Shown piece by piece: positions 1 to 56,209 of a stretch of DNA of 64,000 bases (the stretch's first letter is position 1; each line of letters begins with the position of its first letter). Source of the DNA: Candidatus Woesearchaeota archaeon (GTDB lineage Archaea; Nanobdellota; Nanobdellia; Woesearchaeales; B29-G15); assembly GCA_017610005.1 (NCBI GenBank), contig JAFCCU010000001.1, positions 144,371 to 208,370 on the forward strand. Reading direction: 5' to 3'. A model generated the notes under the pieces. That model did not search any database. It was given only the letters and a program-made list of their open reading frames with translations, and was not told where the DNA came from. A program made the position numbers and the translations under genes.

Positions 1-308
1 TTGGGGCATTAAAGATTAGAATGTTTAGACCTTTTCCATTGCAAGAAGTAGCTAAATGGCTTACAGGTAAGAAAAGTGTAGCAGTGCTTGACAGATCAGC
101 TTCATTTGGTTCTGTTGGCCCAGTTTATCATGAAATAAGATCTGCATTATATGAAACAGAAGCTAAACCCAAGGTTGTAAGTTATATTTATGGACTTGGA
201 GGCAGAGACATCAATGTTGAACATATTGAGAAGGTTTTTGAAGAATTAGAAAACGGAACAGCAAAAGCAGAAAATTATCTTGGAGTGAGGGATGAAAATG
301 AACGTTAA
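1..308 (+). CDS. porA: Pyruvate/2-oxoacid:ferredoxin oxidoreductase alpha subunit, C-terminal fragment (gene starts upstream of the window)
   Basis: In-frame ORF runs off the 5' edge. The C-terminal sequence ...[45 protein letters not shown] is typical of the PorA C-terminus. It overlaps the porB start by 17 nt, as in por operons. Confidence 0.6.
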
Positions 309-2319
309 AGAGATTGCTGCAAGAAAAGAAAGATTAGCGCCAGGCCATAGGCTTTGCCCTGGTTGTGCTGCTCCAATGATTGTAAGACAAACATTAAAAG
401 CAATAAAACAAGATGTTGTTATTGCAAACGCCACAGGATGTTTAGAAGTATCAACTACAATTTATCCATATTCTTCATGGCGAGTTCCCTGGATTCATAA
501 TGCATTTGAAAACGCAGCAGTAACAATTTCTGGTGTAGAAACAATGTATCGAGCCTTAAAAAAGAAAGGCAAGATAAAAAAAGATATTAAATTCATTGCT
601 TTTGGTGGAGATGGAGGAACATATGATATTGGCCTGCAAAGTCTTTCAGGGGCTTTAGAGCGAGGTCATGATTTTCTGTATATTTGCTACGATAATGGAG
701 CTTATATGAATTGTCTCAGCCGAGATACTTTTGTTATGACTCAAGATGGTCTAAAAAAAATTACTGATATAAAAACCGGAGACCCAGTTTATGCATTTAA
801 TCAAAAAACCGGAGACCTAGTAATTAAAAAGTGCACAGGAGTTTTTGATAACGGAGTTAAGAAAGTGTACGAATTAAAAACCTTACATCATTCTATCAAG
901 GCAACAGCCAATCATCCTTTCCTTGTTGTAAAAAGGGGAGGAAGAGGAAAAGATGGGAAACTTGAATGGAAAACCGTTGAAAAACTAAAAAATAACGATG
1001 AAGTGGTTGTTTTAAAAAATTCTTTGAAAGGGAAAAGTTTCAAACTGGCTCCAGTAAATATTTCAAAGAAAGGTGACTATAAAGTAAACAGACTTAATTT
1101 AGTTTCTATCCCCAAGAAAACAAGCCCGGATTTAATGGAATTATTGGGGTTATATGTTGGTGATGGATGGATAAGGGAAGAAAAAGGGGAAGTGGGTTTT
1201 GCTTTGCCCAAGGGTGTTAAAGGAAGGAACCGGGCTGAAAGTTTGCTAAAATCAATTTTTAAAGCTAAATTAAGTAATAAGTTTCATGATTATATCTATT
1301 TATACTCAGTCAATGCAGCAAGATTCATTAATTCTTTAGGATTTGGAAAGAATGCTCGCGAAAAACTAATTCCTCCTTGGGTTTTTACATTGCCTGATAA
1401 CGAAAAAGAAGCATTTGTCAAGGGCTTAATGCTTTCTGATGGGTATACCATTGGAAAGAGCCTTAGATATGTTTCTGCAAGTATGGATTTATTAAAAACA
1501 TTAAGACTTTTATTGCAAACTATAAAGTATAGGGTTGGAAAGATCCATCAACAAAAAAAGAAAAAAGGAACATTTGTTGTTTATAGGCAATTACTTGAAG
1601 ACTCAACTTATGGGTACATTTGTTTTAGTAAACCAAAAGGGGCTGATTTAAAGAAATTTAAATCACAAGTAAAACAAAGAAACTTTTTAGCAGGAAATGA
1701 GAATTTTGCAACTGAAAAAATAACTTCTATTGAATATGTAAAAGAAGAACCCACTCTTGATTTAAGGGTTGAAGGTGAACATAATTTTGTTGCAGATGGA
1801 ATTGTAGTTCATAATACTGGAATTCAAAGAAGTTCAGCTACCCCAAGAGGTGCATGGACTAATACAAGTCAAGTAGGAAAAGCTATACAAGGAAAACAGG
1901 AATTTAAAAAAGATTTAACAGCTGTTGTTATTGCGCACCATATTCCTTATGTTGCAACAGCAACCCCTGCAAACTACATTGATTTAATGAAAAAAGTTGA
2001 AAAGGCTATTAACACACCAGGCCCTGCTTTTATGAATATTTTATCACCGTGCCCAAGAGGTTGGAGATTCCCTGCAAATTTAACAATTTCAATGTGTAAG
2101 TTAGCTGTTGAAACAGGCTTTTGGCCATTATTTGAGTATGAAAACGGCAAATACACATTAAACTTTGATCCTACTAAAAAGAAAAAACCAATTTCTGAAT
2201 GGATTGATAGCCAAGGAAGATACAGGCATTTTAAGGGCAATAAGAAGTTTGCAGCCGAAATTCAAGCTGATGTGGATAGAAAGATTGATGAACTTAAATG
2301 GCTAGCCTCCCGTAAATAA
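292..2319 (+). CDS. porB: Pyruvate:ferredoxin oxidoreductase beta subunit (TPP-binding) interrupted by an in-frame intein. The extein is 292..711 plus 1816..2319, about 307 aa.
   Basis: N-terminal PGHRLCPGC motif and the GDGG TPP motif are present. The conserved YDNGAYMN|TGIQRSS motif is split by 368 aa of intein. The C-terminal region is homologous to PorB. Confidence 0.85.
712..1815 (+). mobile_element. Intein with a LAGLIDADG homing endonuclease domain, inserted in the TPP-binding motif of PorB
   Basis: It starts with Cys (CLSRDTFV, block A). Block B is [10 protein letters not shown]. Two LAGLIDADG-like motifs are present: [11 protein letters not shown] and [11 protein letters not shown]. 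Blocks F/G read [20 protein letters not shown] followed by Thr +1. The length is 1104 nt, in frame. Confidence 0.8.
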
Positions 2320-6290: not shown

Positions 6291-8357
6291 ATGGCAAAAG
6301 GGGGTAGTTTAGATAGTCTATTTAATCCACGAGCAATTGCAGTGATTGGTGCATCAAATGCCCCTCAGAAAGTTGGAAATAATATTCTTAGAAATTTGCG
6401 AGACTTTGGGTATCGAGGACAGATCTATCCAATAAATCTAAATGAACCTACCATTCTTAATATGAGGGCTTATCCTACTGTGCTTGATGTGCCTGGTCCA
6501 ATTGATCTTGTAATTATTGCAATTCCGGCACAGTTCTCTGTACGTGCTATTGAAGAGTGTGGAATTAAAAAAATTAAGAATGCAATAGTAATTTCTGCAG
6601 GATTTAAAGAAGTGGGGGAAGCAGGATTAGAATTGCAAGATGAACTAATGGCTGCAGCAAGAAAGTACAATGTAAGAATTCTTGGCCCTAATTGTTTAGG
6701 AGTAATTAACCTTCATAATAATATGAATGCTTCATTTTCATCGATTAATCCAAAAAAAGGAAATATTTCATTTATCTCTCAATCAGGTGCATTATGCACC
6801 TCAATTCTATCATTAGCAGTTGAAGAAAATTTTGGGTTCTCAAAATTTATTAGTATTGGCAATAAAATTGACTTAGATGAATGTGATTTATTAGAGTATT
6901 TAGGTGACGACCCTCAAACAGATGTTATTTTAATATATATAGAATCATTAAACAACGGAAGGCGGTTTATGCAAGTTGCAAATAAAGTTGCACATAAAAA
7001 ACCAGTTGTAATGATTAAGGCGGGTGTAACTGAAGCAGGGGCAAAAGCAGTATCCTCGCATACTGGTGCAATGGCAGGCAAAGATCAAATATTTGAAGCA
7101 GCTTTAAGGCAATCTGGAGTTATTAGAGTTTGTTGTCTTGAGGACTTATTTAATGCTGCTGAGTTATTCTCGAAAATGACCAAACTTGATAATAATAATT
7201 TATTAATTGTTACAAATGGTGGTGGAATGGGAGTAATTACTGTTGATACTTGTATGAAACTTGGAATTCCTCTTGCTAAACTTGCAAGCTCTCACGAAGA
7301 AAAAATTAGAAAATTTTTACCAGGCCATGCCATAGTTAATAATCCCGTAGATGTAATTGGAGATGCTGGAGTTGATCGTTTTAAAAAAGTACTTGATATT
7401 GCAATTAAAGATAAAGCTGTTGGAGTAATCTTAGTAATTGTCACTCCTCAAAGTATGACTGATATTGTTGAAACAGCTGAACTTATTATTAAACTCGAAG
7501 GTAAAAAAGAGATAATAACTAATTTTATTGGAAGAGAGCGTAAAATGATTATTGCTCAAGAAATTCTAAATGAATCTGAAGTCCCAAACTATGAATTTCC
7601 TGAAGGTGCAGTAAATGGGATTGAAATGTTAGCCAGATTCAATAAATTTGTAAAAAGAAAAAGTGAAATACCTAAACAGATTATATTTAATAAAGCAATT
7701 GTTAGGCAAATCTTAGATAAAAAGAGAAAGAAACTTTCACTTGAGGAAGGTTTTAGAATATTAAGTGCACTTGGATTAAAAACAGCGCCTCAGATTTTTT
7801 CAAATAATTTAGAGGATCATTTGGATTTTTTAAACCAGCATAATCAAATTATTTTAAAATTGGACTCGCCCTTCGCTCAGCACAAAACTGAAGAGAAATT
7901 AGTTACAAAAAAGATTACTTGTGACCAGGAATTAAAAGCAGAATTTACCAGACTTAGGGAAGCTTGCAAAAACTATAAGGAATCCAAAGTTTGTGCTCAA
8001 AAGTTTATTTTAGGCACTGAACTAATTATTGGGGGTCTTTCAGATAGAACATTTGGAAGCGTAGTAACTTTAGGGATAGGGGGAATTTTAACAGAACTTC
8101 TAAAAGATATTTCATTTAGAGTTCCGCCCATAACAAATAGGGATGTAGATGAAATGATTGATGAATTAAAAACTGGCAAACTTTTAAAGGGTTTTAGAAA
8201 TTTACCAAAGGTAGATATTGATTCATTAAGGATATTTGTGCATGCAATTGGCTCTCTGTTATTAGAAATGCCACAAATTGCCGAAATTGAAATGAATCCG
8301 GTTATTGCAACTAAAGATTCTGCTTATGCAGTAGATATTTTAATTACTCTTGCATAA
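6291..8357 (+). CDS. acd: Acetyl-CoA synthetase (ADP-forming), fused alpha/beta subunits (acetate--CoA ligase [ADP-forming])
   Basis: N-terminal CoA-binding Rossmann region (AIAVIGASNAPQKVGN), succinyl-CoA-synthetase-like flavodoxin domain, C-terminal ATP-grasp domain; 688 aa. Confidence 0.85.
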   Translation: MAKGGSLDSLFNPRAIAVIGASNAPQKVGNNILRNLRDFGYRGQIYPINLNEPTILNMRAYPTVLDVPGPIDLVIIAIPAQFSVRAIEECGIKKIKNAIVISAGFKEVGEAGLELQDELMAAARKYNVRILGPNCLGVINLHNNMNASFSSINPKKGNISFISQSGALCTSILSLAVEENFGFSKFISIGNKIDLDECDLLEYLGDDPQTDVILIYIESLNNGRRFMQVANKVAHKKPVVMIKAGVTEAGAKAVSSHTGAMAGKDQIFEAALRQSGVIRVCCLEDLFNAAELFSKMTKLDNNNLLIVTNGGGMGVITVDTCMKLGIPLAKLASSHEEKIRKFLPGHAIVNNPVDVIGDAGVDRFKKVLDIAIKDKAVGVILVIVTPQSMTDIVETAELIIKLEGKKEIITNFIGRERKMIIAQEILNESEVPNYEFPEGAVNGIEMLARFNKFVKRKSEIPKQIIFNKAIVRQILDKKRKKLSLEEGFRILSALGLKTAPQIFSNNLEDHLDFLNQHNQIILKLDSPFAQHKTEEKLVTKKITCDQELKAEFTRLREACKNYKESKVCAQKFILGTELIIGGLSDRTFGSVVTLGIGGILTELLKDISFRVPPITNRDVDEMIDELKTGKLLKGFRNLPKVDIDSLRIFVHAIGSLLLEMPQIAEIEMNPVIATKDSAYAVDILITLA

Positions 8358-10169: not shown

Positions 10170-12446
10170 TTATTCGTAGGGTTTAGGATGGTGGGGAATC
10201 CCTAACTCTTGTGCTTCAGAATAAATATGAGAAAATGCAGGATTTCTACCAATTTCATCCTTTAATAGAATATGGCCATCAGTTTGGGCATAGCTAATTG
10301 TGAAAAACGCAGTCTGATGTATTTGCTGGATTACACTTAAAAACTTTTCAGTTGCTCTAACAGTTCCATTTATTTCAATTCCTCCCTTAAGGAGTAATCT
10401 GTTTAATAAGTATTTACAAACATTTCTATCTTCTTTATTGTGTTCAACAACCCAATTTTGGGCAAAAAGGTATCCAACAAAAACTTGTTTAAAAACATCC
10501 ATGTGGTCTGTTGTAACGCTTGATTTTTTCCTAACTGAAAAATAATCCTGCATTTGACCAACAAATCTGGTGTAGCTTTCAATTAAATGGGTTTCTCTTA
10601 AAGTTTTCTCTACTGGAGTGGGCTTTTGTTTATTTTGTGATCGTGGCAGACCATATGGCCCCTCCAGCAGGATATAAAGCGTTTCCCAAAGTTTAAATTT
10701 CTCAAATGAGTCTGCAACATTACTTTCCCCAAATAAAATATGACTCATGGGTAATTGAACTTGTTCAAAAATTGAATAACGCTCAGCTGTTTCATCTGTT
10801 TCAAGTAGGTGGTTAACCAATGAAAATCTGGCAAGGTGAATTCTTGGCGAGGTGTAATCATCATGCAATTTTTTCCCTTTGTGACCTTTTTCCCTAAGTT
10901 TCCCCACATCTTCGTCCATTAAAATTTCTATGATTCTAGGAACATTATCATCTCCTATTTCTATGTTAAAAGGCCATGCCCCCCAAATTTCCCTTTCTTT
11001 AAGGCCCTTTAATTTAACTGTTCCAGGGTTTAAAACTGTGCTACAAATTGTAGCGTTACCAGAAGGGTGAAATAATTGGGATAATAAAACAGCAACCTCT
11101 TTTCCTGCAGCATAGTTGTTGTCTTTTAGCCCTACTGCCTCTTTATAACCTTGGATTCTCATAGATTCGGTAATATTCCCCCTTGACTCTAGAATTTTCT
11201 CCTCAAGTCCAGGGAAATCATCGATCTTATCTCCAAAACCCACTTCAATAGTTCTTCCGTCCTCAGTTTCAAAATGGAGGACTGCTTGGTTATAAACAGG
11301 AACTGCCAAATTTGAGTGGGGTAATAAAACAAGTGGGTTAATAACTTGGACATATTTTCCATTTCCTAATTTTCGAAATTTACCCATAGATTTAATTATA
11401 TCACCCACAATATTTTCAATAGACCTTGAAAATCTCCGCACCTCTGGGTATACTCCAAAAATTCTTTCATAGGCCTTAGGATCATTATTGAGTTTGTAAA
11501 TGGTATTGCAGGAGCTAGAGACAGAATTAGTCCCAACAACAATTGGGCCCTTATAATCAGCAAGTATTCTTCCTATTTCTAATATTGTACCAAAATGAAG
11601 AAAAGATTCAACTTCCCGCGTTGTTTTAGGCTCGATGTTTTCTAAATCAATATTTTCGCTAGCGTATACAATTGCAACGTTTGACTTGTGTACATCTTTA
11701 GGATTTGTACTCCCAACAAGTTTATCACGAATATCTGGGATATCATCTTCAAGTGCAACCACAATATGTTCGATTGTCCTAGTTACTGAATCTTCATTTC
11801 TTCCTAAAATGGTAACAGTTCCAACATTATCAAAATTCCTAAGATAGGCAATAGCGGTTGCTCGGCCCGCTTTCCCAGTTCCCCCTATAATTACAGGATT
11901 AATTTGGCATATTGTCTTATATTTGGTTGAAGAAGTTTCTCCAAGTTCTTGCCGGTAAATTAATTCATTCTCCATCATCCCAGCAATTATATTATCCATA
12001 GTCTTACGTTTACGCCTTTTGAATGTATCATCATGAGAAGCAATTTCTTCATTTACAACAGCCATTAGTTGAATTGGAGAACCACTATGGCGAACTACAT
12101 CAAAATACAATGATTCAAGATAAAATTTTACTTTTTTATCTTTAGTTTTTTGATCGACGCTTTCAAGTGGGATTTTTATTTTTGAATTTTGGAGGGAATA
12201 ATTATAGAGTCTATCTTCCCATCCTTCTCGCATGTCTACAATGACTATGCCTACATTATAGGCTCCATCTCCACCGTCAGCCATACTTAACCCCCTTATA
12301 GCATCTAAATTAGTTTCTTGGGCTAAAAGAATTCTTTCTCTATTTGGAGGGTTCTTTGTCTCTAACCTTCCTTCTAATGTTTTAAAAAAACTGTCATCTC
12401 CTACAACTATTACTTCAGTTCTTGAATTTCTACCTAGTCCTGCCAC
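10170..12446 (-). CDS. Large multidomain protein with a lactate/malate-dehydrogenase-like NAD(P)-binding Rossmann core; N- and C-terminal domains of unknown function
   Basis: 758 aa. GxGxxG-like IIGGTGKAGRATAIAYL with downstream VVGTNSVSS, resembling the LDH/MDH VTNPVD region. Flanking regions of about 160 aa and 250 aa are unassigned. Confidence 0.55.
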   Translation of the reverse strand: MAGLGRNSRTEVIVVGDDSFFKTLEGRLETKNPPNRERILLAQETNLDAIRGLSMADGGDGAYNVGIVIVDMREGWEDRLYNYSLQNSKIKIPLESVDQKTKDKKVKFYLESLYFDVVRHSGSPIQLMAVVNEEIASHDDTFKRRKRKTMDNIIAGMMENELIYRQELGETSSTKYKTICQINPVIIGGTGKAGRATAIAYLRNFDNVGTVTILGRNEDSVTRTIEHIVVALEDDIPDIRDKLVGSTNPKDVHKSNVAIVYASENIDLENIEPKTTREVESFLHFGTILEIGRILADYKGPIVVGTNSVSSSCNTIYKLNNDPKAYERIFGVYPEVRRFSRSIENIVGDIIKSMGKFRKLGNGKYVQVINPLVLLPHSNLAVPVYNQAVLHFETEDGRTIEVGFGDKIDDFPGLEEKILESRGNITESMRIQGYKEAVGLKDNNYAAGKEVAVLLSQLFHPSGNATICSTVLNPGTVKLKGLKEREIWGAWPFNIEIGDDNVPRIIEILMDEDVGKLREKGHKGKKLHDDYTSPRIHLARFSLVNHLLETDETAERYSIFEQVQLPMSHILFGESNVADSFEKFKLWETLYILLEGPYGLPRSQNKQKPTPVEKTLRETHLIESYTRFVGQMQDYFSVRKKSSVTTDHMDVFKQVFVGYLFAQNWVVEHNKEDRNVCKYLLNRLLLKGGIEINGTVRATEKFLSVIQQIHQTAFFTISYAQTDGHILLKDEIGRNPAFSHIYSEAQELGIPHHPKPYE

Positions 12447-45545: not shown

Positions 45546-48026
45546 ATGGGTATAAATAAAAAAGGTGTATTATTAGTTTTAATATTAGTTTTGCCTATCA
45601 TTATTATTGCTAGTTCTAAACAAGCTGTAACTCAAGACATATTTGCTGATTATAAAACAAATATTGACTTAAATACGGCCAGAAAATTTACAGTGGGAGA
45701 TTTTTCATTAGAATTAAAAAGTTTAGATAATTTTGTTAAATTAATTGGAGTTAATGAGGATAAAAGCAAATTTTTTTCTTATAGATTTGATTCTCCACCA
45801 AGTGAAACATTTGTAACTTTTGCAACAGATACAGGCGAAAAGAAAGAAGTTTTACTTTCTAATATTCCCGAAGCGAAAAATTCTGATCATTTAAAAAATG
45901 AAGCTGCAAATTCATATGTTGGAAAAATTCAAGGAGTTCTTCTCGAAGACACACGTGAAAAAGAAATTCCTGTAATAATAACCTTAGATATAGGTAAATA
46001 CATGGATTTACGACTAGAAAATTTAGAAAAGAACCAGCCATTAATGACAATTGAAGGAAGTGAAGAAGCGTTCCTTAAGTCCCGCGAAGAACTTCTTAAA
46101 GAGCTCCAAATGGATATTTTAAAAGATTCTTCTAACTTAAGATTAGTTAACGCTGTCGCAACAAAACTTACTCAATCTGAAATCAAGGAGTTAGAGGATT
46201 TAGATATTGTTACAAAAGTTAGTTTTGATAGTCCGGTACATATAGTATTGTATAATTCAACTGAAATAATAAATGCAACAAGTTTATGGCATGCAGGCAA
46301 TAACATAACTGGGAAAGGAATAACTATTGCTATTATTGACACAGGAGTAGATTATACTCATGTTGATTTAGGTGGTTGTCTTGGTGAAGATTGTAAAGTT
46401 TTAAGTGGATATGACTTTGTAAACCAAGATTCTGATCCGATAGATGACCATGGCCATGGAACTCATTGTGCTGGAACTGCTGCTGGAAATGGAACAATGT
46501 TAGGGGTTGCTCCTAATGCAAAAATTTATGCCTATAAAGTTTTAAGTGATACAGGATCTGGAAGCACATCTTGGGTGATTGGGGGAATTGAAAGAGCATT
46601 AGACCCAGATAATGATGGTGATTACTCAGATCATGCAGATGTAATCAGTTTGTCCCTGGGGGGTTCTGGAAATCCAGATGATGAATTATCTCAAGCAGTT
46701 AATGCAGCAACGGTAACTGGAGCAGTAATGGTTGTTGCTGCAGGAAACTCTGGACCTTATGCTGAAAGTATCGGAAGTCCAGGTGGTGCTGAAAAAGCAA
46801 TTACTGTGGGTGCAACTTGTAAGCCTTCCCAAATTGGGGACCATTATTATTGTGATGAAAAAATTGCAAGTTTTTCTTCACGTGGGCCAACATCTACAGG
46901 GAGCATAAAGCCAGATATTGTGGCTCCTGGTGTTTTAATTTGTGCTGCCCAATGGGGAGACGCATGGGCTAGCTCCCAATGTTTTGATAATGATCATACT
47001 GCAATATCTGGAACTTCAATGGCCACACCCCATGTCGCAGGTGCAGCAGCATTATTGCTTCAAAGTCATGTAAATTGGACACCTGAACAAGTTAAATCAG
47101 CTTTAATGACTACAAGCACTAATCTCGGTTATAACCCAAACTTTCAAGGGACTGGTGAAATAAATGTTTTATTGGCTGAAAATGCATCTTTTTCAACTCA
47201 ACCACAAAGTTTGGGATTTGGCTTTGTAAACAATAACGATTTTGCAACTGAGTTTAAAATTATTAACCTAAAAAATACCCCAGTAACTTTAACATTAAGT
47301 GTTGCAGATGTTATAGATGAAGAGTCAAATACATTTTCTTTTGCAAGCTTAAATACAACTTCGATAAATCTTCCAGGTGGAAATTCAACTAACATTACTC
47401 TTGAGATTAATATAACTGGCAATGCAGAAGGCAACTTTTTTGGTATGATTAATATAACCTATGATAATTATGTTGGAAGAATGCCATTTTCATTTGTCAA
47501 GCTTTCCCAATTAACCATTACTGTGAATGGATCTCAAGCAGTTTATCCTGATTTATTGATACATGATGAAAATTTAACAATTAGGCGTGGTGTTTTCCAA
47601 GGGATAGCGTTTGAAGGAGATACTTATACATTTCAAATACCTTCTGGGAATTATACTGTCTACGCAGTTGGTGATCAAGAAGACTTAAATTATGAATATT
47701 TGCTAATGGGGATTGTTGAAGTTCCAATAAATTCTCATATTAATAAGACATTAAATGTATCAAATGCAAGGGAGTTTACAGTTGGAGCTGAGTCTTTGAC
47801 AGGAGAACCGTTAAAATTGTATAAATGGGAAAAGGGATTTGTTTCATATTATTTAGGAGAAACATTAAGCTATTCTTTTGTAGATCCAGAATTTGGAAAT
47901 AGAACCATTAGAATTTCAAATAAACCAGATAATCAAGTAACTACAGACATCATAATCAATTACCATGGGGTACCTACAGATTCAGCTTACACCTCAGGAG
48001 GAAACAGTAGATCAATTGGAACATAA
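45546..48026 (+). CDS. Secreted subtilisin-like serine protease (S8 family) with a long C-terminal beta-rich region
   Basis: Signal peptide. Asp/His/Ser triad motifs AIIDTGVDYTHVDLGG, HGTHCAGTAAG and GTSMATPHVAG. 826 aa. Confidence 0.85.
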   Translation: MGINKKGVLLVLILVLPIIIIASSKQAVTQDIFADYKTNIDLNTARKFTVGDFSLELKSLDNFVKLIGVNEDKSKFFSYRFDSPPSETFVTFATDTGEKKEVLLSNIPEAKNSDHLKNEAANSYVGKIQGVLLEDTREKEIPVIITLDIGKYMDLRLENLEKNQPLMTIEGSEEAFLKSREELLKELQMDILKDSSNLRLVNAVATKLTQSEIKELEDLDIVTKVSFDSPVHIVLYNSTEIINATSLWHAGNNITGKGITIAIIDTGVDYTHVDLGGCLGEDCKVLSGYDFVNQDSDPIDDHGHGTHCAGTAAGNGTMLGVAPNAKIYAYKVLSDTGSGSTSWVIGGIERALDPDNDGDYSDHADVISLSLGGSGNPDDELSQAVNAATVTGAVMVVAAGNSGPYAESIGSPGGAEKAITVGATCKPSQIGDHYYCDEKIASFSSRGPTSTGSIKPDIVAPGVLICAAQWGDAWASSQCFDNDHTAISGTSMATPHVAGAAALLLQSHVNWTPEQVKSALMTTSTNLGYNPNFQGTGEINVLLAENASFSTQPQSLGFGFVNNNDFATEFKIINLKNTPVTLTLSVADVIDEESNTFSFASLNTTSINLPGGNSTNITLEINITGNAEGNFFGMINITYDNYVGRMPFSFVKLSQLTITVNGSQAVYPDLLIHDENLTIRRGVFQGIAFEGDTYTFQIPSGNYTVYAVGDQEDLNYEYLLMGIVEVPINSHINKTLNVSNAREFTVGAESLTGEPLKLYKWEKGFVSYYLGETLSYSFVDPEFGNRTIRISNKPDNQVTTDIIINYHGVPTDSAYTSGGNSRSIGT

Positions 48027-51000
48027 AACCTTACTTACAATTGGATTAGTATTATTTATGTTAGTATTAACTGGTTGCCCTTCTGAAGATAAAGCATACT
48101 CCATTGCAGAAGACCATTATCTTATAGGTTTTATTTTACATAATGTAGATGATTCAACTAATGAAATCCTTAATTATTCTGTTGATGATTTAGCAGTTTA
48201 TAATTATTCATACAATTATCCAGGAGGATTGCCCAGGACATATTCTCAAGTATTATTTTGGGTGGCCCCAATACACGAAAACTCTTCAGCAGGTGCAGGG
48301 TCAAGTTGGATTGATATAAATGTTCCAGTATCAAAAACATATTATTTGTATGGAGAAAATCCAGTTCCACAAAGCTATAGATCAAATTGGTCATTCTCAA
48401 ATTACTTACATGTTAATTACCTAAAATCTGAAGAATCAAGTGTTGAATTTGCTTATGAAGTTATGCAAGTTGAACACTATTTATCAGAAAGTGCATTTTA
48501 TGGAATAACCCCAATACCTGGAGTTTACAAACAAATAAGTTTTGGTGGCGCACCGTACTTGCCAACAAGTATTACAATTAATGACAGTAATTTATTATTA
48601 AATAGTCATCTTCTAAGGGGGAGTAATGGGAATTCTTATATTTCAAGAAGGACCAAACAGGATGTATGGAACTCAGAAACTGGAGAAATTAATGTTTCTC
48701 TTTTGGAACCCAACTTTCAAATTTATAAAGAAGGAAGCTTAGATGAATTTGGAAACTTAACTGATGAAGGTTATAATTGGGATAAAACAAAATTAAATTA
48801 TGACCTGACCAATGGAAATTACACTGTTATTGTAAATTTTTCTTCTTATTACCCTGTTTGGAACCACACAATGATTACAAGTTCCTTTGAATACCCTTCA
48901 ATTGACCCAGAACCACCAGTTTTAACTCAAATAAATATATCTCCAAGATTCCAATATAATGAAAATATTAATGTTTCATTAAATTTTACTGATGATTCAA
49001 CAATTAGCAATGTTTCAATTTTTTATTCTACTGATCTTGATGACACATGGGTAGAGACAAACGTTGATGAAAATTATACAACAAATTTTTCTATCCCTAA
49101 TGGTGGAGAAGAAGAAATAAATTTAAAATTTGAAGCAATCGATTTTTATAATAACTCCATCAATTGGGTTGTAAAACCTGTCTCTTTACTATCAATATTG
49201 CCAATATTTGATTTTGATTGTGAAGAAAGCTCAGCCACCAGAGGTGAATTAATCTCTTGCAGTGGTCAATGTATAACTGACCTCGGTGGAAACTGCAGTG
49301 GGCTTAGGTTTGCATATTATTTAAATGATCAATTTGTTAGTTATGATAGAAGTGAAAAATATGATTCATGGGCTGGGACAGAAGAAGGAGAATTTTCTAC
49401 TGAAATAACTATCCCTTATACAATAACAGGTGATAGTCTAAATATTTCTTTAATTTTCCCAGGGACTGGTATTTTTCAAGATGTCACAGAAACAGTTGAA
49501 ATTGACCTTGTTATGCACGAATATGATCTAGCTGTAAACAACTTAACTTGTCTTAGTCCAGAAATTGATGCAATTAATGATATTACAGCAGAAGTTTTCA
49601 ACAACGGGGATTATGAGTCTACACAAGTAAATGTAAGTTTAATAATTGATCAAGTTTTAGTTAACTCCACAATCATTTCTACAGTATCCAGTTTAGAAAG
49701 CGAATCTGTTTCATTTAATTGGAGCCCAACAGAATCAGGAATTTATAATATTACAATCTATGTAACACCAGAAGATGATGATGGAGATTTAACAAATAAC
49801 TACGCTGAAACAGAAGTTAGTCTGGGGGCAGACATTAAAGGATATATCTCATTATCCTCGTGGAGTAATGCTATTAATGAAAGTGTAGAAATAAATATTG
49901 ACTACGGCAACAATAAAGATATTAATGTCACAGATATTTCTGCTGTTTTCTTTGACTTTTATGATTATGATTCAACTTATCCAGATTATGGAAAACAAGG
50001 TAATCTATACCTAAATGATACTTTATATTATGTCAATGCTACACTCCGCGGAAATTTGGTTGATTTCAACATAACTTATAATGATACTAGTTATTATTAT
50101 ACGCTTCATGAAGGCCAAAGTATATTACTTAATACTGGTGCTCGATTTGATTTTAAATATAAATATTCAGATTATTGTGCGTTGATGATTGGATTTGCGG
50201 AAAAAACTGAATTTGAGCTTGAAAATTTAACAAGTTATGACGAAAAAGAAAAGAAGTTTAATTGGACCCCCACAGTATTAGGCTACCATCGCTTAAAGCT
50301 TTTTATTAATACCTCAAGTGATTCATATTGGGCAAATAATAATGATTACACTGGAGGTTATGTAAAATCATATAATCCAGACTTAATAGTTATGGTAGAT
50401 AGTAATTACTATTTAGAGTACAATGCTCCTTCTAATCTTGAAATTGATATTTATAATGATGGGTATGTGGATTCTGGCCAAATTTCAGGGTTATTTACTA
50501 TTTATTATCCTTATGTTGACGAATATATCTCTTATGAATCTACTGATATTATTGAGTTTAATGGAAATAACTATTCAATTTATGTAAATGGGAGTAGTAA
50601 TTTAGTTTTTTACAATGTAACTTATGATGGGACTTCAGAACTGTTCAATTTAACTTATGGAGAGAATATTACGTTAGGGGATGGAACAGTCCTTGACTCA
50701 GTTTATATGAGTGATTATGGCACAACATCCTTATTAGGGATTCCTAACTCTACAGATGTGTCTTATTCAAGTATTCAAGCAGGGTTCTCTAGATTAGAAT
50801 ATGAAACATGGATACCCGTAGAATTAGGAGATTATTCATTAAAGATTAAACTGGATGATGCAAATGATGCAGACCCAAGTGATAACTTTGATTTTTATGA
50901 AGTTACTGCAAAAGTTCCAGGTCCTGATTTAAGTTTAGGTTTTTATAACTATGAAGATGCCTTTGTAAATCAAGAGTATTCACTAGGAATAAGTCTTTAT

Positions 51001-54000
51001 AATTATGGTACAACTGAAGGAATCAATGCAAATCTTTCCATATTAGACTTGTATAGTTATGAATCTAAATCTGGTTACTTTGCAAATTCAAGAATATTTG
51101 AATTCAATGGAACTGAATTTAATGTAACGCTAAATTCAAGTTCAAATGAAAGTTACCTTGCAGGAAAATTAAAATTTGATGACACAATATTAAATATTTC
51201 GGGGTATGAATGGGGAGATTATTTTGAGGTTGGAGAGGGATTATTCTTTGCTATAGACCGATGTTATACAGATAAATGTTATTTTTTCATTGGCAATGGG
51301 ACAATAACCTCATACACGATTGCAAATATTAGCACTAACACTTATAAGGAATTCAACTTCACTCCAACAGTGATTGGTGAACATGAGATATTCGTTAGTT
51401 TAAATGTAAGTGACGAAGTTGATTATTCCAATAATTATTATAATGATAATTTAGAAGTAATAAAACCTGGGCCAAATCTTTATACTTACTTAGGTGGGGA
51501 TTACTTTATACCTGTAAATTCTTCAACCAATGTTTCTCTTAATTACAAAAATATTGGCACAGCACCCAGTAATTGTTCTTATAAGGTGTATGCTCTTGAA
51601 GAATATAACACTTCATATCTCTATTGTGGGGAAAGCGGAACATTTTATTATAATTCTGAAACTTATTATATTAATTCAACAAATTATAATTCAACCTTTA
51701 AAATTTTTAATATAACTCATAATGGTACAAAATATAATTACATGCTTTCAAGGTATCAGGGAGTAGAACTTCCTAATGGAGATTATTTCTTTAGCGATTC
51801 TGGGGGGAGTTCTAGTTGTTATCCTGGATTTGGAAAAGGCAATTTCTCTTCTGGAAGAATTAACATAGGTCCAACTAATAACTATAATACTGCAATCATT
51901 AGTTATACTCCATCAACGCTTGGACAGATAAAACTGCTTTCATATGCAAATTGTTCTGATGATACTGATTATTCGAACAATGGAGCATATTTTACTTCAT
52001 ATGCCCTTCGTCCAGGTGCAAATGGCGAACCTTATTTCTATATTTCTTCATATACTCAGGCTACGACCTTATCGCTTAGATTAAATAATGTGGGAACAAC
52101 TCAGATTATTAATGGTTCACTGTTCTTATATGAAAATGAAGTTTTGATTTATAATATCTCGGGGTTAACTGTGGATAATGATGACACTTCTTATAATTAC
52201 TATGATTACATTCCTACTACCCTTGGAACAACTACCTTAACTTTAGTTGCAAATGTTCCAGATGATATTAATCAAAGTAATAATATTTACACTAGAAAAT
52301 CTTACACCTATCAAGTTGTCAATAGAAGTTTTACCACAAATGATGAAAATGGATCTGTAAATGATGATCAGATAATTAATCTTTTAAATGATGATCTTGA
52401 TAATGTAGCAAATAAATCAAAAGCAACTTATTATTTCCCTGAAGACAACATAGTTATTCTTAATAATGACACTTCAAATTATTTAACTTCTGTAGAGTAT
52501 ATTCTAGCTAATACGACTAATAATCTTACTGCTCAAACACAATTCTATGAAAACTTTGGAAATAAATATTTTATATATGCAACAAATCCTGATTATAGTT
52601 TTAATAATACAAATTGGGCAATTGAGCATAATGACTATCTCTCTTTTGTCCATTCATTGGAAGGATTTGTTGTTTATGGTTGTAATGATTGGAATTTTTC
52701 ATCGAGAAATTGCTCTTGGAATTATGTTTCTAATGATTTAAATGTTTATTCTGATAGTTTTGAATTTTACGATTACACTGGAAAATACACTACATTTGCC
52801 CTTGCAAATGACACCGACTTAGACAGTGTTCCAACTGATGAAGATAACTGCCCCTACATATTTAATAGAAGGCAAACTGATGTTGACAACGATGGACAGG
52901 GAGATAAATGCGACTCCGATGCAGATGATGATGGAATAAATGATTCTGAAGATACAATTATTGGAAAAGCTGCTTCAATTAATTCAAATGTGGCGTTAAA
53001 CATAACAATAAATGGGAGTTTAAATATTAATGGAACTAAAAATAAAACTCAGCTTGTTGAAATCAAAAAAGAAAATATAACTATTGTTAAATTTAATCAC
53101 AATTTTAGTAGTAAAAGGCTTCAACTAACAAATATCACTATTCGTGTACAAAGCGATACAAGCCCCCTAGGGTATCTAGTTATTCAAGGCATCAATTTGG
53201 TAAATGATACAAAAACAGTCACTGTCGACCGTATAGGTGGCTCTAATAGTGTTTGTGTTAAAGATGCACTTGTAACAAACATATCAGAGATGTCAGATGA
53301 TTGCAATGAGACATATGAGACAGAACTAAGCTGCATTACAGGCCTTGAACAATCAGGATACAACTGCTCTATAAACGGCTCTACTTTTATTATATCAGGA
53401 TTAAATCATTCAGCTTTAAAAGAAATTGCTTTACCTGCTCCAACTACCACAACTACTATTAGTTCCTCCAGTGGAAGCTCAAGTGGAGGGACTGGAATGG
53501 GAATTGCACCGCTTTGTTTGCCTGATCCTCAATGCGGGTCTTGGGGTAATTGCTTTGAAAACGAAACTCAATATAGGGAGTGTTTTGATGCTTGTCGCCA
53601 AAAAGCGTCTGTTGAAAAGCAAAGTTGCACATATATTATGCCCACTACAACAACTTCGATTGAGCCAGTAATAGAAACTCCCGCTTTAATAGAAACTTGT
53701 GATGATGGTTATTGGAATCAAGATGAAGAAGGAATTGATTGTGGAGGGGTTTGTGAACCTTGCAAGGTATTTAAAGATACAATTAAAGCATTACCTATTG
53801 CAATAGGTTTAGGGGTCTTGTTAGGTGGTATTTTGGCCTTTTTATGGGTTAAAAAACATAGTTCCACTCCTGCTTATCATGAAAAAGAAAATGAATTAGC
53901 TGACTTTATTAAACAAGCAAAAGGTGCATTACATAATAAAGATATTGAAACTGCTAGGCAAATGTATGGGAAAATTAAAACAGCTTATTCAAAACTCCCT

Positions 54001-54063
54001 GAACAAGAAAAAGAACTATTCTATGATCACATTATGGAAGTTTATAACAGGTTATCTAAGTGA
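47965..54063 (+). CDS. Giant (about 2000 aa) N-glycosylation-rich cell-surface protein with thrombospondin-type-3-like Ca-binding repeats, a membrane-proximal Cys-rich module, and a C-terminal TM anchor with cytoplasmic tail; candidate S-layer protein or adhesin. The true start is uncertain.
   Basis: Hydrophobic N-terminal segment LLTIGLVLFMLVLTGC with a lipobox-like LTGC. Dozens of NxS/T sequons. DEDNCPY...DVDNDGQGDKCDSDADDDGINDSEDT. CLPDPQCGSWGNC...CGGVCEPC. ALPIAIGLGVLLGGILAFLWV then KKHS. Confidence 0.75.
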   Translation: MGYLQIQLTPQEETVDQLEHKTLLTIGLVLFMLVLTGCPSEDKAYSIAEDHYLIGFILHNVDDSTNEILNYSVDDLAVYNYSYNYPGGLPRTYSQVLFWVAPIHENSSAGAGSSWIDINVPVSKTYYLYGENPVPQSYRSNWSFSNYLHVNYLKSEESSVEFAYEVMQVEHYLSESAFYGITPIPGVYKQISFGGAPYLPTSITINDSNLLLNSHLLRGSNGNSYISRRTKQDVWNSETGEINVSLLEPNFQIYKEGSLDEFGNLTDEGYNWDKTKLNYDLTNGNYTVIVNFSSYYPVWNHTMITSSFEYPSIDPEPPVLTQINISPRFQYNENINVSLNFTDDSTISNVSIFYSTDLDDTWVETNVDENYTTNFSIPNGGEEEINLKFEAIDFYNNSINWVVKPVSLLSILPIFDFDCEESSATRGELISCSGQCITDLGGNCSGLRFAYYLNDQFVSYDRSEKYDSWAGTEEGEFSTEITIPYTITGDSLNISLIFPGTGIFQDVTETVEIDLVMHEYDLAVNNLTCLSPEIDAINDITAEVFNNGDYESTQVNVSLIIDQVLVNSTIISTVSSLESESVSFNWSPTESGIYNITIYVTPEDDDGDLTNNYAETEVSLGADIKGYISLSSWSNAINESVEINIDYGNNKDINVTDISAVFFDFYDYDSTYPDYGKQGNLYLNDTLYYVNATLRGNLVDFNITYNDTSYYYTLHEGQSILLNTGARFDFKYKYSDYCALMIGFAEKTEFELENLTSYDEKEKKFNWTPTVLGYHRLKLFINTSSDSYWANNNDYTGGYVKSYNPDLIVMVDSNYYLEYNAPSNLEIDIYNDGYVDSGQISGLFTIYYPYVDEYISYESTDIIEFNGNNYSIYVNGSSNLVFYNVTYDGTSELFNLTYGENITLGDGTVLDSVYMSDYGTTSLLGIPNSTDVSYSSIQAGFSRLEYETWIPVELGDYSLKIKLDDANDADPSDNFDFYEVTAKVPGPDLSLGFYNYEDAFVNQEYSLGISLYNYGTTEGINANLSILDLYSYESKSGYFANSRIFEFNGTEFNVTLNSSSNESYLAGKLKFDDTILNISGYEWGDYFEVGEGLFFAIDRCYTDKCYFFIGNGTITSYTIANISTNTYKEFNFTPTVIGEHEIFVSLNVSDEVDYSNNYYNDNLEVIKPGPNLYTYLGGDYFIPVNSSTNVSLNYKNIGTAPSNCSYKVYALEEYNTSYLYCGESGTFYYNSETYYINSTNYNSTFKIFNITHNGTKYNYMLSRYQGVELPNGDYFFSDSGGSSSCYPGFGKGNFSSGRINIGPTNNYNTAIISYTPSTLGQIKLLSYANCSDDTDYSNNGAYFTSYALRPGANGEPYFYISSYTQATTLSLRLNNVGTTQIINGSLFLYENEVLIYNISGLTVDNDDTSYNYYDYIPTTLGTTTLTLVANVPDDINQSNNIYTRKSYTYQVVNRSFTTNDENGSVNDDQIINLLNDDLDNVANKSKATYYFPEDNIVILNNDTSNYLTSVEYILANTTNNLTAQTQFYENFGNKYFIYATNPDYSFNNTNWAIEHNDYLSFVHSLEGFVVYGCNDWNFSSRNCSWNYVSNDLNVYSDSFEFYDYTGKYTTFALANDTDLDSVPTDEDNCPYIFNRRQTDVDNDGQGDKCDSDADDDGINDSEDTIIGKAASINSNVALNITINGSLNINGTKNKTQLVEIKKENITIVKFNHNFSSKRLQLTNITIRVQSDTSPLGYLVIQGINLVNDTKTVTVDRIGGSNSVCVKDALVTNISEMSDDCNETYETELSCITGLEQSGYNCSINGSTFIISGLNHSALKEIALPAPTTTTTISSSSGSSSGGTGMGIAPLCLPDPQCGSWGNCFENETQYRECFDACRQKASVEKQSCTYIMPTTTTSIEPVIETPALIETCDDGYWNQDEEGIDCGGVCEPCKVFKDTIKALPIAIGLGVLLGGILAFLWVKKHSSTPAYHEKENELADFIKQAKGALHNKDIETARQMYGKIKTAYSKLPEQEKELFYDHIMEVYNRLSK

Positions 54064-54858: not shown

Positions 54859-54931
54859 GGCAGCTGTAGTGTAACGGTTAGCATGGGACCCTGTGGAGGT
54901 CCAGGAGCGGGTTCGACTCCCGCCATTTGCC
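54859..54931 (+). tRNA. tRNA-His (anticodon GTG at 54893-54895) with an encoded G-1
   Basis: Manual cloverleaf. G-1:C73. Acceptor GCAGCTG/CATTTGC with one C:U mismatch. D stem GTGT/GCAT, loop AACGGTTA. Anticodon stem GGACC/GGTCC, loop CTGTGGA. T stem GCGGG/CCCGC, loop TTCGACT. Sits directly upstream of hisS. Confidence 0.8.
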
Positions 54932-54940
54932 CTTAAAATC

Positions 54941-56209
54941 ATGAAAACTGTAAAAGGAACCAGGGATTTTCTACCAAGTGAACAGTTAATAAGAGAGGAT
55001 ATTATGCAATCCTTGAGGGTTGTATTTCAATCTTTTGGATTTAGACCTCTTGATACCCCTGCACTCGAACTTTTTGAAACACTTTCCGCTAAATATGCTG
55101 GTGGTTCTGAAATTTTAAAAGAAACTTTCTCATTAAAAGGTAGAAGTGATACACCATTAGGCTTGAGATATGACTTAACAGTGCCCCTCGCGCGTGTAAT
55201 TGCTTCTAATCCACAATTAAAATTTCCCTTTAAACGCTATCAAATAAGTAAGGTTTGGCGCGATGGGCCAGTAGGCATGGGAAGATACAGAGAATTTTGG
55301 CAATGTGATGTTGACACAATTGGTGCTAAATCAATGAAAGCTGACGCTGAAATACTTGCAATTGCTTATGAAGTTTTTAAAAAATTAGAATGCAAAGTTG
55401 TAATAAACGTAAACAATAGAAAACTTCTTAATGGAATATTAGAAAAATTAGAAATTTCTAATACAGCCGATGCAATCTCAATTATTGATAAATTTAAAAA
55501 ATTAAACAAAAAGGGCCTTTTAAAAGAATTTAAAGCTAAAGGCATAAGTTCTGTTACTGCTGAAAAAATATTAAACTTCTTTGAGAAAATTCCAACTAAT
55601 GCACTTTCTTTTCTCTCAAAAGAAATAACAAGTGAAGAGGGTCAAGAAGGGCTCCAAGAATTAAAAGAGCTAAGTAAATATGCAAAAGCTTATGGCATCA
55701 AAGTCAATATAACTCCGGAACTTGCAAGAGGATTAAGCTATTATACTTCAACCATTTTTGAAATATTTGCACCAAAATTCAATTTCTCTTTAGCAGGTGG
55801 CGGCCGCTATAATAAATTAATTGGAAGTTTTTTAAATGCAAAACAAGACTATCCTGCAGTCGGAATCTCTTTTGGGCTTGATAGAATTAGAGATATTTTA
55901 GCTGAAAAAACCACAAAAATCGAAACAAAAACCCAAATATTCATAATCCCTATTGGAACAGAACTCGAAGCAATAGTCCTTACAAAAAAACTTAGAGAAG
56001 TAGGAATTAATGTTGAAACTGATATTATGGGCAAAGGCATAACAAAAAACCTAAATTATGCAAATTCCCTTGGAATCCCTTATGTTTTATTCTTAGGAGA
56101 AAAAGAAATTAAAGCAGGTAAATATAAACTCAAAAACATGACTTCTGGTAAAGAAACCTTAATCACAGAAAAAACCTTAATAAAACAACTTTTTTCTCCA
56201 GACTGTTAG
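54941..56209 (+). CDS. hisS: Histidyl-tRNA synthetase. Start at the ATG at 54941; the track's 54893 start overlaps the tRNA.
   Basis: Class II motifs (GTRDFLP, LRYDLTVPLAR, FRYERPQ-like RYREFWQCDVD, GGGRYN) and a C-terminal anticodon-binding domain. Confidence 0.9.
   Translation: MKTVKGTRDFLPSEQLIREDIMQSLRVVFQSFGFRPLDTPALELFETLSAKYAGGSEILKETFSLKGRSDTPLGLRYDLTVPLARVIASNPQLKFPFKRYQISKVWRDGPVGMGRYREFWQCDVDTIGAKSMKADAEILAIAYEVFKKLECKVVINVNNRKLLNGILEKLEISNTADAISIIDKFKKLNKKGLLKEFKAKGISSVTAEKILNFFEKIPTNALSFLSKEITSEEGQEGLQELKELSKYAKAYGIKVNITPELARGLSYYTSTIFEIFAPKFNFSLAGGGRYNKLIGSFLNAKQDYPAVGISFGLDRIRDILAEKTTKIETKTQIFIIPIGTELEAIVLTKKLREVGINVETDIMGKGITKNLNYANSLGIPYVLFLGEKEIKAGKYKLKNMTSGKETLITEKTLIKQLFSPDC

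Follow-up and report, generated by a model that had tools for sequence, protein, structure and literature searches.

Inteins are known outside the proteins of replication and repair. Metabolic and iron-sulfur examples are those of Mycobacterium tuberculosis SufB (Pps1) and of the phosphoenolpyruvate (PEP) synthase, the glutamine-fructose-6-phosphate (GF6P) aminotransferase and the UDP-glucose dehydrogenase of Methanocaldococcus jannaschii (InBase entries), precedents that lie at conserved catalytic or ligand sites, in hosts and at positions different from those described below. In the homing cycle, an intein with an endonuclease invades a site and becomes fixed there, its endonuclease decays, and the element is lost before the site is invaded anew (reviewed in PMC7765530). 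I describe here an intein in a stretch of 64,000 nucleotides (the window) from a Candidatus Woesearchaeota archaeon (GenBank assembly GCA_017610005.1, contig JAFCCU010000001.1, positions 144,371 to 208,370), where it interrupts the gene for a protein like PorB, the beta subunit of pyruvate:ferredoxin oxidoreductase (PFOR). The element is of class 1, complete and in frame, and has a LAGLIDADG endonuclease with two motifs. I propose that it is very probably a selfish, bifunctional element, belonging to an old family that is confined to this one site and goes through the homing cycle there.

The 675-amino-acid (aa) PorB-like precursor is encoded in one unbroken open reading frame (ORF), 292-2319 on the forward strand. 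The intein occupies precursor residues 141-508 (nucleotides 712-1815), 368 aa placed exactly in frame, and the junctions read ...DNGAYMN/CLSRDTF...DGIVVHN/TGIQRSS, where a slash marks a junction, as it does throughout. Coordinates, length, frame and motifs were verified codon by codon. An earlier reading of the letters without database searches (the sequence-only reading) had given this interval, length and frame, and its coordinates and junctions prove exact. It had also listed a Cys1, a TxxH block B, two LAGLIDADG blocks and a VVHN/T end, each of which lies where it was placed: Cys is the first intein residue (block A), block B is T65-A-N-H68, block G is VVH367-N368 with Thr at +1, and both LAGLIDADG motifs have the acidic Asp at motif position 8.

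The profile searches that the same reading had suggested for the Hint and LAGLIDADG domains give matches above the cut-offs in both Pfam and NCBIfam, well past anything that chance would produce. Pfam Intein_splicing (PF14890) matches with E 1.4e-18 and 67.6 bits (cut-off 35.8), and LAGLIDADG_3 (PF14528) matches intein residues 232-294 with E 4.4e-8 and 33.7 bits (cut-off 22.5). The NCBIfam models intein_Nterm and intein_Cterm (TIGR01445, TIGR01443) are both above their cut-offs, followed by models of intein-bearing DnaB, GyrA, RtcB, RNR and IF-2. By sequence the nearest solved chains are the Npu and Ssp DnaB mini-inteins, PI-PkoII and a VMA intein. An AlphaFold2 model of the intein (72-row alignment) has pLDDT 91.9 and pTM 0.88, and its best Foldseek matches in the PDB, with E values from 7e-23 to 1.5e-18, include TliVMA (7qsu; E 7e-23, TM 0.75) and PhoVMA (7qst). 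PI-PkoII (2cw7) and PI-SceI (1vde) come next, and lower down are mini-inteins, hedgehog Hint domains and I-DmoI (4unb). Full-length alignment of the model to TliVMA, PI-PkoII and PI-SceI, with helix-strand repeats at model residues 139-283, shows the pseudo-dimeric alpha-beta-beta-alpha-beta-beta-alpha endonuclease fold, and the HINT fold is found by the Pfam and NCBIfam profiles and by the matches of the model to intein structures alike. The parts of the locus, including those of its thiamine pyrophosphate (TPP) enzyme host, are these:

21..308, forward: 3' end of an upstream porA-like alpha-subunit gene (Pfam PFOR_II PF17147, E 1.1e-18, profile positions 36-102 of 102)
292..711, forward: N-extein, aa 1-140 (TPP_enzyme_C PF02775, E 8e-13; gapless against 9bt4_C and 5c4i_C), holding three of the four [4Fe-4S] cysteine ligands (C22, C25, C50); its -1 residue is Asn140
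601-615, forward: GDG Mg/TPP motif of the N-extein (FGGDG)
712..1815, forward: class-1 intein with nested LAGLIDADG homing endonuclease, 368 aa (Pfam, NCBIfam, AlphaFold2, Foldseek)
712..1017, forward: N-terminal splicing (HINT) lobe, intein residues 1-102 (invariant residues; match to the N-lobes of the Ssp and Npu DnaB inteins)
712-714, forward: Cys1
832-834, forward: Cys41
904-915, forward: block B, T65-A-N-H68 (TANH)
1018..1671, forward: linker and LAGLIDADG endonuclease domain, about intein residues 103-320 (boundaries from natural mini-intein alleles)
1141-1167, forward: LAGLIDADG motif 1, LLGLYVGDG, with Asp151
1417-1443, forward: LAGLIDADG motif 2, VKGLMLSDG, with Asp243
1747..1815, forward: C-terminal splicing blocks F and G, with Asp350, His357, His367 and Asn368 (NCBIfam intein_Cterm at residues 350-368)
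1816..2319, forward: C-extein, 167 aa and stop (gapless against 9bt4_C and 5c4i_C); the Cys of its LSPCPRGW is the fourth cluster ligand and aligns with Cys1071 ('ATC') of Desulfovibrio africanus PFOR
1816-1818, forward: Thr, the +1 nucleophile
688..711, no strand: predicted homing site, left half (intein-free allele at locus L001, and conservation across loci)
1816..1839, no strand: predicted homing site, right half (same basis)

With the intein taken out, the 307-aa extein aligns without a gap across N140/T141 with two solved beta subunits, that of PFOR in 9bt4_C (E 1e-81) and that of oxalate oxidoreductase in 5c4i_C. Intein-free homologues are 303-311 aa long, so they do not run on through residues 141-508, the finding that would have told against an insertion, and the alignment of the exteins that the sequence-only reading had proposed as a check is seamless. 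Its view that a conserved TPP-motif segment of the PFOR beta subunit is interrupted also stands: the insertion splits YMN/TG of the TPP-binding domain of a PorB-like protein. The best NCBIfam family for the extein is the PorB equivalog NF008819 (382.2 bits), with 318 bits for the VorB type. The cofactor motifs of PorB are all there. PF02775 matches, and GGDGG...YDN, C22, C25, C50 and the Cys of LSPC align with their counterparts in PFOR structures. The alpha subunit (PorA) is adjacent, in an ORF that overlaps the porB start by 17 nt; the gene extends beyond the 5' end of the window, so that the listed start is an ATG inside it. Gamma and delta subunit genes would fall outside it. The order porA-porB is also that of the intein-free locus L001.

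By alignment, Asn140 corresponds to Asn996 of D. africanus PFOR and Thr141 to Thr997 (residue number being chain index + 1, checked at the Mg ligands Asp963, Thr991 and Val993). In that enzyme Asn996 forms part of the wall of the pyruvate pocket and turns on binding of the substrate (PMC5020499). The intein also separates the cluster ligands, with three cysteines in the N-extein and the fourth in the C-extein. A precursor with an insert in the substrate/TPP pocket and with its Fe-S ligands apart should therefore be catalytically dead until it is spliced, and if that is so, splicing would be obligatory for an active enzyme.

The route to that enzyme can be drawn from the residues present. The intein would be translated inside a precursor of about 75 kDa (a size taken from its length), the beta subunit of what looks like a four-subunit-type pyruvate/2-oxoacid:ferredoxin oxidoreductase. 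An N-S acyl shift at Cys1, helped by Thr65 and His68 of block B, would be followed by attack of Thr+1 to form a branched ester, then by cyclisation of Asn368 to a succinimide, helped by His367, and an O-N shift would seal ...AYMN-TGIQ..., yielding the 307-aa PorB and a free intein of 368 aa. Once free, the intein would act as an endonuclease of the pseudo-dimeric LAGLIDADG type, with Asp151 and Asp243 as its catalytic residues, cutting uninterrupted, highly conserved porB DNA around GCTTATATGAAT/ACTGGNATTCA, and recombinational repair from an intein-bearing copy would then insert the element. The window copy is a full-length, apparently intact member of an old family restricted to the PorB/VorB-type beta-subunit site, one that is likely to have moved between divergent host alleles, between Archaea and Bacteria included.

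The comparison set has 191 non-redundant full-length members from two domains of life. C1, C41, T65, H68, D350, H357, H367 and N368 are invariant (191/191), and the conservation of the catalytic residues makes the window copy probably competent to splice. The endonuclease is conserved about as well: Asp151 is kept in 189/191 and Asp243 in 190/191, 53 of the 177 columns of the core (136-312) are at least 95% conserved, and the mean frequency of the commonest residue is 0.73 in the endonuclease domain as against 0.75 and 0.83 in the splicing lobes. Cys41, in the N-terminal splicing lobe, is as strict as the catalytic Cys1; it has no role in the standard intein blocks and faces a Val in the alignment with the Ssp DnaB intein (PDB 1mi8).

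The family is large and stays at its site. It is present in 163 or more protein clusters and in no fewer than 79 genomes that represent GTDB species. A search with the full precursor finds at least 120 clusters of about 675 aa with 56-67% identity, all of the form YMN/C...VHN/TG, and the C-junction VHN/TG is present in 120/120 of the best full-length homologues; a search with the intein alone finds only PorB-type hosts. When one genome was scanned for each GTDB species, tblastn confirmed 294 relatives, of which the best 80 (57-71% identity) were analysed, and in 79 of these 80 loci the insertion site is identical. The hosts, by submitter labels, are Woesearchaeota, Nanoarchaeota, Aenigmatarchaeota, Iainarchaeum, Micrarchaeota, Heimdallarchaeota (eight loci), Bathyarchaeia, Omnitrophota (many), Aerophobetes, Parcubacteria, Cloacimonadota, Vermiphilus and others. 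Some labels of third party annotation (TPA) hosts, namely Methanosarcinales, Planctomycetia and Clostridia, look unreliable. In an exhaustive library of clusters at 50% identity the family reduces to a handful of representatives, there is almost nothing between about 35% and 55% identity, and the nearest inteins outside PorB, at about 35% or less, sit in unrelated proteins that often have several inteins.

A scan of viral contigs revealed no vector and gave only inteins of at most 31% full-length identity, in terminase, portal, protease-like and other proteins. The nearest viral relatives, at 27-31% identity, are on IMG/VR contigs L085, L088 and L084, in ORFs of 1128-1641 aa as extracted with at least three inteins each; those of L085 and L088 look like portal-type proteins and have several junctions in which HN is followed by S, C or T.

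One porB in the collection has two inteins. In a Nanoarchaeota metagenome-assembled genome (MAG), KR13_N2.mb.68 (JAHIMK010000007.1; locus L017, positions 1566-2672 and upstream; P0338/P0244), the first is the YMN/TG intein and the second an insertion of 340 aa (CYSEDTEIF...ISLNGN/S) within the Mg/TPP motif, GDGG/SYDIG. The latter scores 36.1 bits with LAGLIDADG_3, above the cut-off, and 22.5 bits with Intein_splicing, below the threshold. It ends in Gly-Asn, not His-Asn. Its position would give this enzyme another insertion site, one less often occupied than the first. Another apparent two-intein protein, P0265, was rejected as an artefact of the pattern search.

Empty, full and degenerate forms of the site are all found. 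The closest extein relatives of the window are intein-free: P0122 (82% identity), P0121 (80%) and P0123-P0128 (70-75%). The intein-free allele L001 reads ...GCTTATATGAAT/ACTGGCATTCAGAGA... at the site, or in shorter form ...GATAATGAGGCTTATATGAAT/ACTGGCATTCAGAGATCATCT..., nearly identical to the flanks of the window joined in the same way, TACGATAATGGAGCTTATATGAAT/ACTGGAATTCAAAGAAGTTCAGCT. Across the 79 genome loci and the window, conservation is 90-100% at most first and second positions of the codons that lie up to about 12 nt from the junction, and 688-711 with 1816-1839 would be the cleavage target. The flanks are strongly conserved in every allele, which leaves a test for co-conversion tracts powerless. 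At the other end of the cycle, 136 of 163 complete inteins at the site are of full length (360-375 aa) and 27 are shortened, among them 15 mini-inteins of 153-192 aa. Several distinct deletion end-points lie between about residues 102 and 322, with the endonuclease domain partly or wholly gone; P0184 differs from P0011 in essence by a clean loss of the endonuclease.

The similarity of the inteins often does not follow that of their exteins. The inteins nearest to the window's are 67-72% identical to it, and several of them have host exteins with just 43-50% identity to that of the window: 71% for the intein and 47% for the extein at locus L004, 68.5% and 50% at L019, and 68.5% and 43% at L011 (1885-2988 of JACNFI010000238.1, a bacterial MAG labelled Cloacimonadota). 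The L011 extein is VorB-like, with 424 bits on NCBIfam NF008818, above the cut-off, so the element has crossed between paralogous 2-oxoacid oxidoreductases and between domains. At L021 and L024, the intein-bearing loci closest to the window by extein, the inteins are less similar. Among the pairs formed by 73 genome loci, 89-94% show higher conservation in the intein than in the extein (79% in the protein set), with mean identities of 63% against 52% within Archaea and 60% against 50% between Archaea and Bacteria. The three kinds of allele, together with the discordance of intein and extein, match what a homing cycle with horizontal spread would leave behind, and the cycle appears to act on a highly conserved target common to the PorB and VorB paralogues and to both prokaryotic domains.

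Several observations weigh against this interpretation or narrow it. Conserved catalytic residues are necessary for splicing or cleavage and not sufficient. The extein, at 382 bits, falls below the 405-bit cut-off of the PorB equivalog NF008819, for which reason I call the protein PorB-like and take pyruvate as no more than a candidate substrate of the host enzyme. The homologue sets were retrieved by similarity to the intein or the precursor, which inflates intein identity relative to that of the extein, a bias that is limited because the exhaustive search of 50% clusters, nearly empty from about 35% to 55% identity, revealed no hidden population of far more divergent PorB inteins. The PorB family itself spans Archaea and Bacteria at about 60-66% identity, so some of the spread across domains could be transfer of whole genes and not homing. 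Finally, the GC content of the intein (25-51%) follows that of the host flanks (r = 0.87), lying 5.7 points lower. By this measure most copies have been resident for a long time and have ameliorated. In the window copy the intein has 32.8% GC, the exteins 36.6% and the window 32.8%, a composition without anomaly that gives no evidence of recent arrival or recent homing.

Such long residence is what one would expect of a harmless passenger, an intein that splices, has a dead endonuclease and is inherited vertically in porB. That many alleles have lost the endonuclease domain entirely fits as well, and the study behind 7qsu, 7qss and 7qst solved two archaeal inteins, of which only one is associated with an active endonuclease domain, the other with an inactive one (PMC8966425), so that a fold that looks intact is no proof of activity. 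I nevertheless consider the passenger unlikely. Both catalytic Asp residues and the 53 strict columns of the core would be hard to keep unless selection acts on the endonuclease or on another role of this domain. Every consensus residue is present in the window copy, and the similarity rankings of intein and extein disagree. Far less credible still is that porB has been inactivated, as a pseudogene or by an insertion that does not splice, with PFOR activity coming from a copy at another place in the genome. Of that genome the window shows no more than 64 kb, so a second copy could lie outside it, and the extein is slightly under the PorB cut-off. Against this, the 675-codon frame is intact, the splicing residues and the cofactor motifs of the extein are all conserved, the exteins are 80-82% identical to those of intein-free homologues with no signs of decay, and the window holds no other porB; tblastn found neither a second porB nor a second intein in it, and Pfam found no Hint domain in ten other window ORFs (nine of them over 580 aa).

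A further alternative is a function for the intein. Splicing that is conditional on redox state, temperature or substrate is documented for other inteins (PMC7765530), and the intein may have been co-opted as a post-translational switch that gates the beta subunit of an oxygen-labile enzyme. The insertion is in the active site, so splicing would gate activity; the host is oxygen-labile; the intein is more conserved than its host; and Cys41 is invariant beside Cys1 in 191/191. If it were true, it could explain how an element with an intact endonuclease comes to outconserve an essential host across DPANN, Asgard, Omnitrophota and the candidate phyla radiation (CPR). I think it improbable, and the detailed version, in which oxidation would trap Cys1, possibly with Cys41, and leave the precursor inert until the cell is reduced, is doubtful to a similar degree. 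The closest relatives do well without an intein, and in many lineages just a mini-intein is left, which is what a parasite would show and not a regulator that the host requires; insertion in the active site is expected already from an endonuclease that targets conserved DNA. The selfish, bifunctional intein in its homing cycle is what I retain.

A gene for an ADP-forming acetyl-CoA synthetase (6291-8357, forward; CoA_binding, Succ_CoA_lig, ATP-grasp_5) follows porB at a distance of 4 kb. Its product would be expected to work with PFOR in making ATP at the substrate level, and it fits a working fermentation pathway from PFOR to acetate. At the intein-free locus L001 a similar gene is found about 0.9 kb downstream of porB, with one ORF between. 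The window also encodes a PEP synthase/PPDK, a glycogen synthase, a debranching-type enzyme and ThrRS, a content that would suit a fermenter dependent on PFOR, with a small DPANN-like genome. The best database hits and the 32.8% GC suggest a DPANN-like (Woesearchaeota/Nanoarchaeota) organism. Elsewhere in the window, 45546-54063 (forward) encodes an 826-aa S8 subtilase and then an overlapping ORF of 2032 aa, probably a giant surface protein, whose sole Pfam match is one CARDB domain. A 758-aa ORF at 10170-12446 (reverse) has no Pfam match. The only Rfam match is a tRNA at 54860-54931 (forward, 53 bits), which overlaps the start of a listed GTG ORF of 438 aa (54893-56209, forward), so the true start of that ORF is probably further downstream.

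Gene callers have trouble with this intein. JGI/IMG gives some copies the name 'pyruvate/2-oxoacid:ferredoxin oxidoreductase beta subunit/intein/homing endonuclease'. Twenty-six deposited proteins (within P0241-P0289, for example P0242, P0244-P0248, P0251 and P0253) begin 'MNC...', their start being placed at the Met that precedes the intein by two residues, and carry the names 'LAGLIDADG family homing endonuclease', 'hypothetical protein' or 'polymorphic toxin-type HINT domain-containing protein'. For thirteen a genome locus could be assigned (those listed with such starts are L007, L015, L021, L034, L037, L040, L042, L043, L047, L056 and L063), and in 13/13 the N-extein lies in frame upstream without a stop. 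Two of the thirteen are irregular, L045 cut by a contig end and L017 lengthened by its second intein. The 'MNC...' entries are truncated gene calls, and calls of this sort could make PFOR look missing or broken in metabolic reconstructions of DPANN, Omnitrophota and CPR.

No published intein in PFOR, in the related 2-oxoacid oxidoreductases (OFOR), in PorB or in another TPP enzyme was found in the searchable literature, a result that leaves absence from published intein lists unproven. As far as that literature shows, host protein and site are undescribed, though automated pipelines already tag many copies. The sequence-only reading had called both unusual. That holds when they are set against the bias of inteins towards replication and repair, and it agrees with the lack of a paper; in sequence data the intein is not rare. 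The element itself is of a textbook kind, and its interest lies in the class of host, in the spread across domains among uncultivated anaerobes, in the conservation of intein over extein and in the pitfall for annotation. A TPP/iron-sulfur enzyme of central anaerobic carbon metabolism is added to the hosts of inteins, with the insertion in its substrate/TPP pocket, and this supports the view that the landing sites of inteins are set by endonuclease targeting of invariant DNA and not by a link to replication. The empty, full and repeatedly endonuclease-deleted alleles at one site make a natural data set on the homing cycle, and they point to transfers between divergent porB and vorB alleles of Archaea and Bacteria that cohabit anoxic sediments and groundwater. 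The natural mini-inteins, with their Thr+1 junction, are candidate tools for protein engineering.

How, then, does the PorB intein compare with those already solved? It is nearest in plan to the VMA inteins of Thermococcus litoralis and Pyrococcus horikoshii (7qsu, 7qss, 7qst) and to PI-SceI of yeast VMA1, its best Foldseek matches as a group (E 7e-23 to 1e-14, TM up to 0.75). They share with it a HINT domain with a two-motif LAGLIDADG endonuclease nested at a conserved insertion point, Cys1 and a C-terminal His-Asn, and a place in the conserved cofactor- or nucleotide-binding site of a non-replicative enzyme. They differ in sequence (14-20% identity), in their +1 residue, which is Thr in the PorB intein, and in their host, an ATPase as against a subunit of a TPP/[4Fe-4S] oxidoreductase. 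PI-SceI has 454 aa, so the PorB intein, with 368, is more compact. PI-PkoII of the Thermococcus kodakarensis DNA polymerase (2cw7) is likewise a bifunctional LAGLIDADG intein (sequence E 2.5e-5, structure E 6.6e-17), but it is only 15% identical, has 537 aa with extra domains and is hosted by a replicative polymerase. The closest solved splicing lobes are those of the Ssp and Npu DnaB mini-inteins (1mi8, 4o1r; E 5e-10 to 9e-10), with about 30% identity over blocks A-B and F-G and the common patterns '...IKATANH.FL...' and '...HNFVA..I.VHN'. Their +1 residue is Ser, their host is a replicative helicase, and the solved constructs are without an endonuclease domain.

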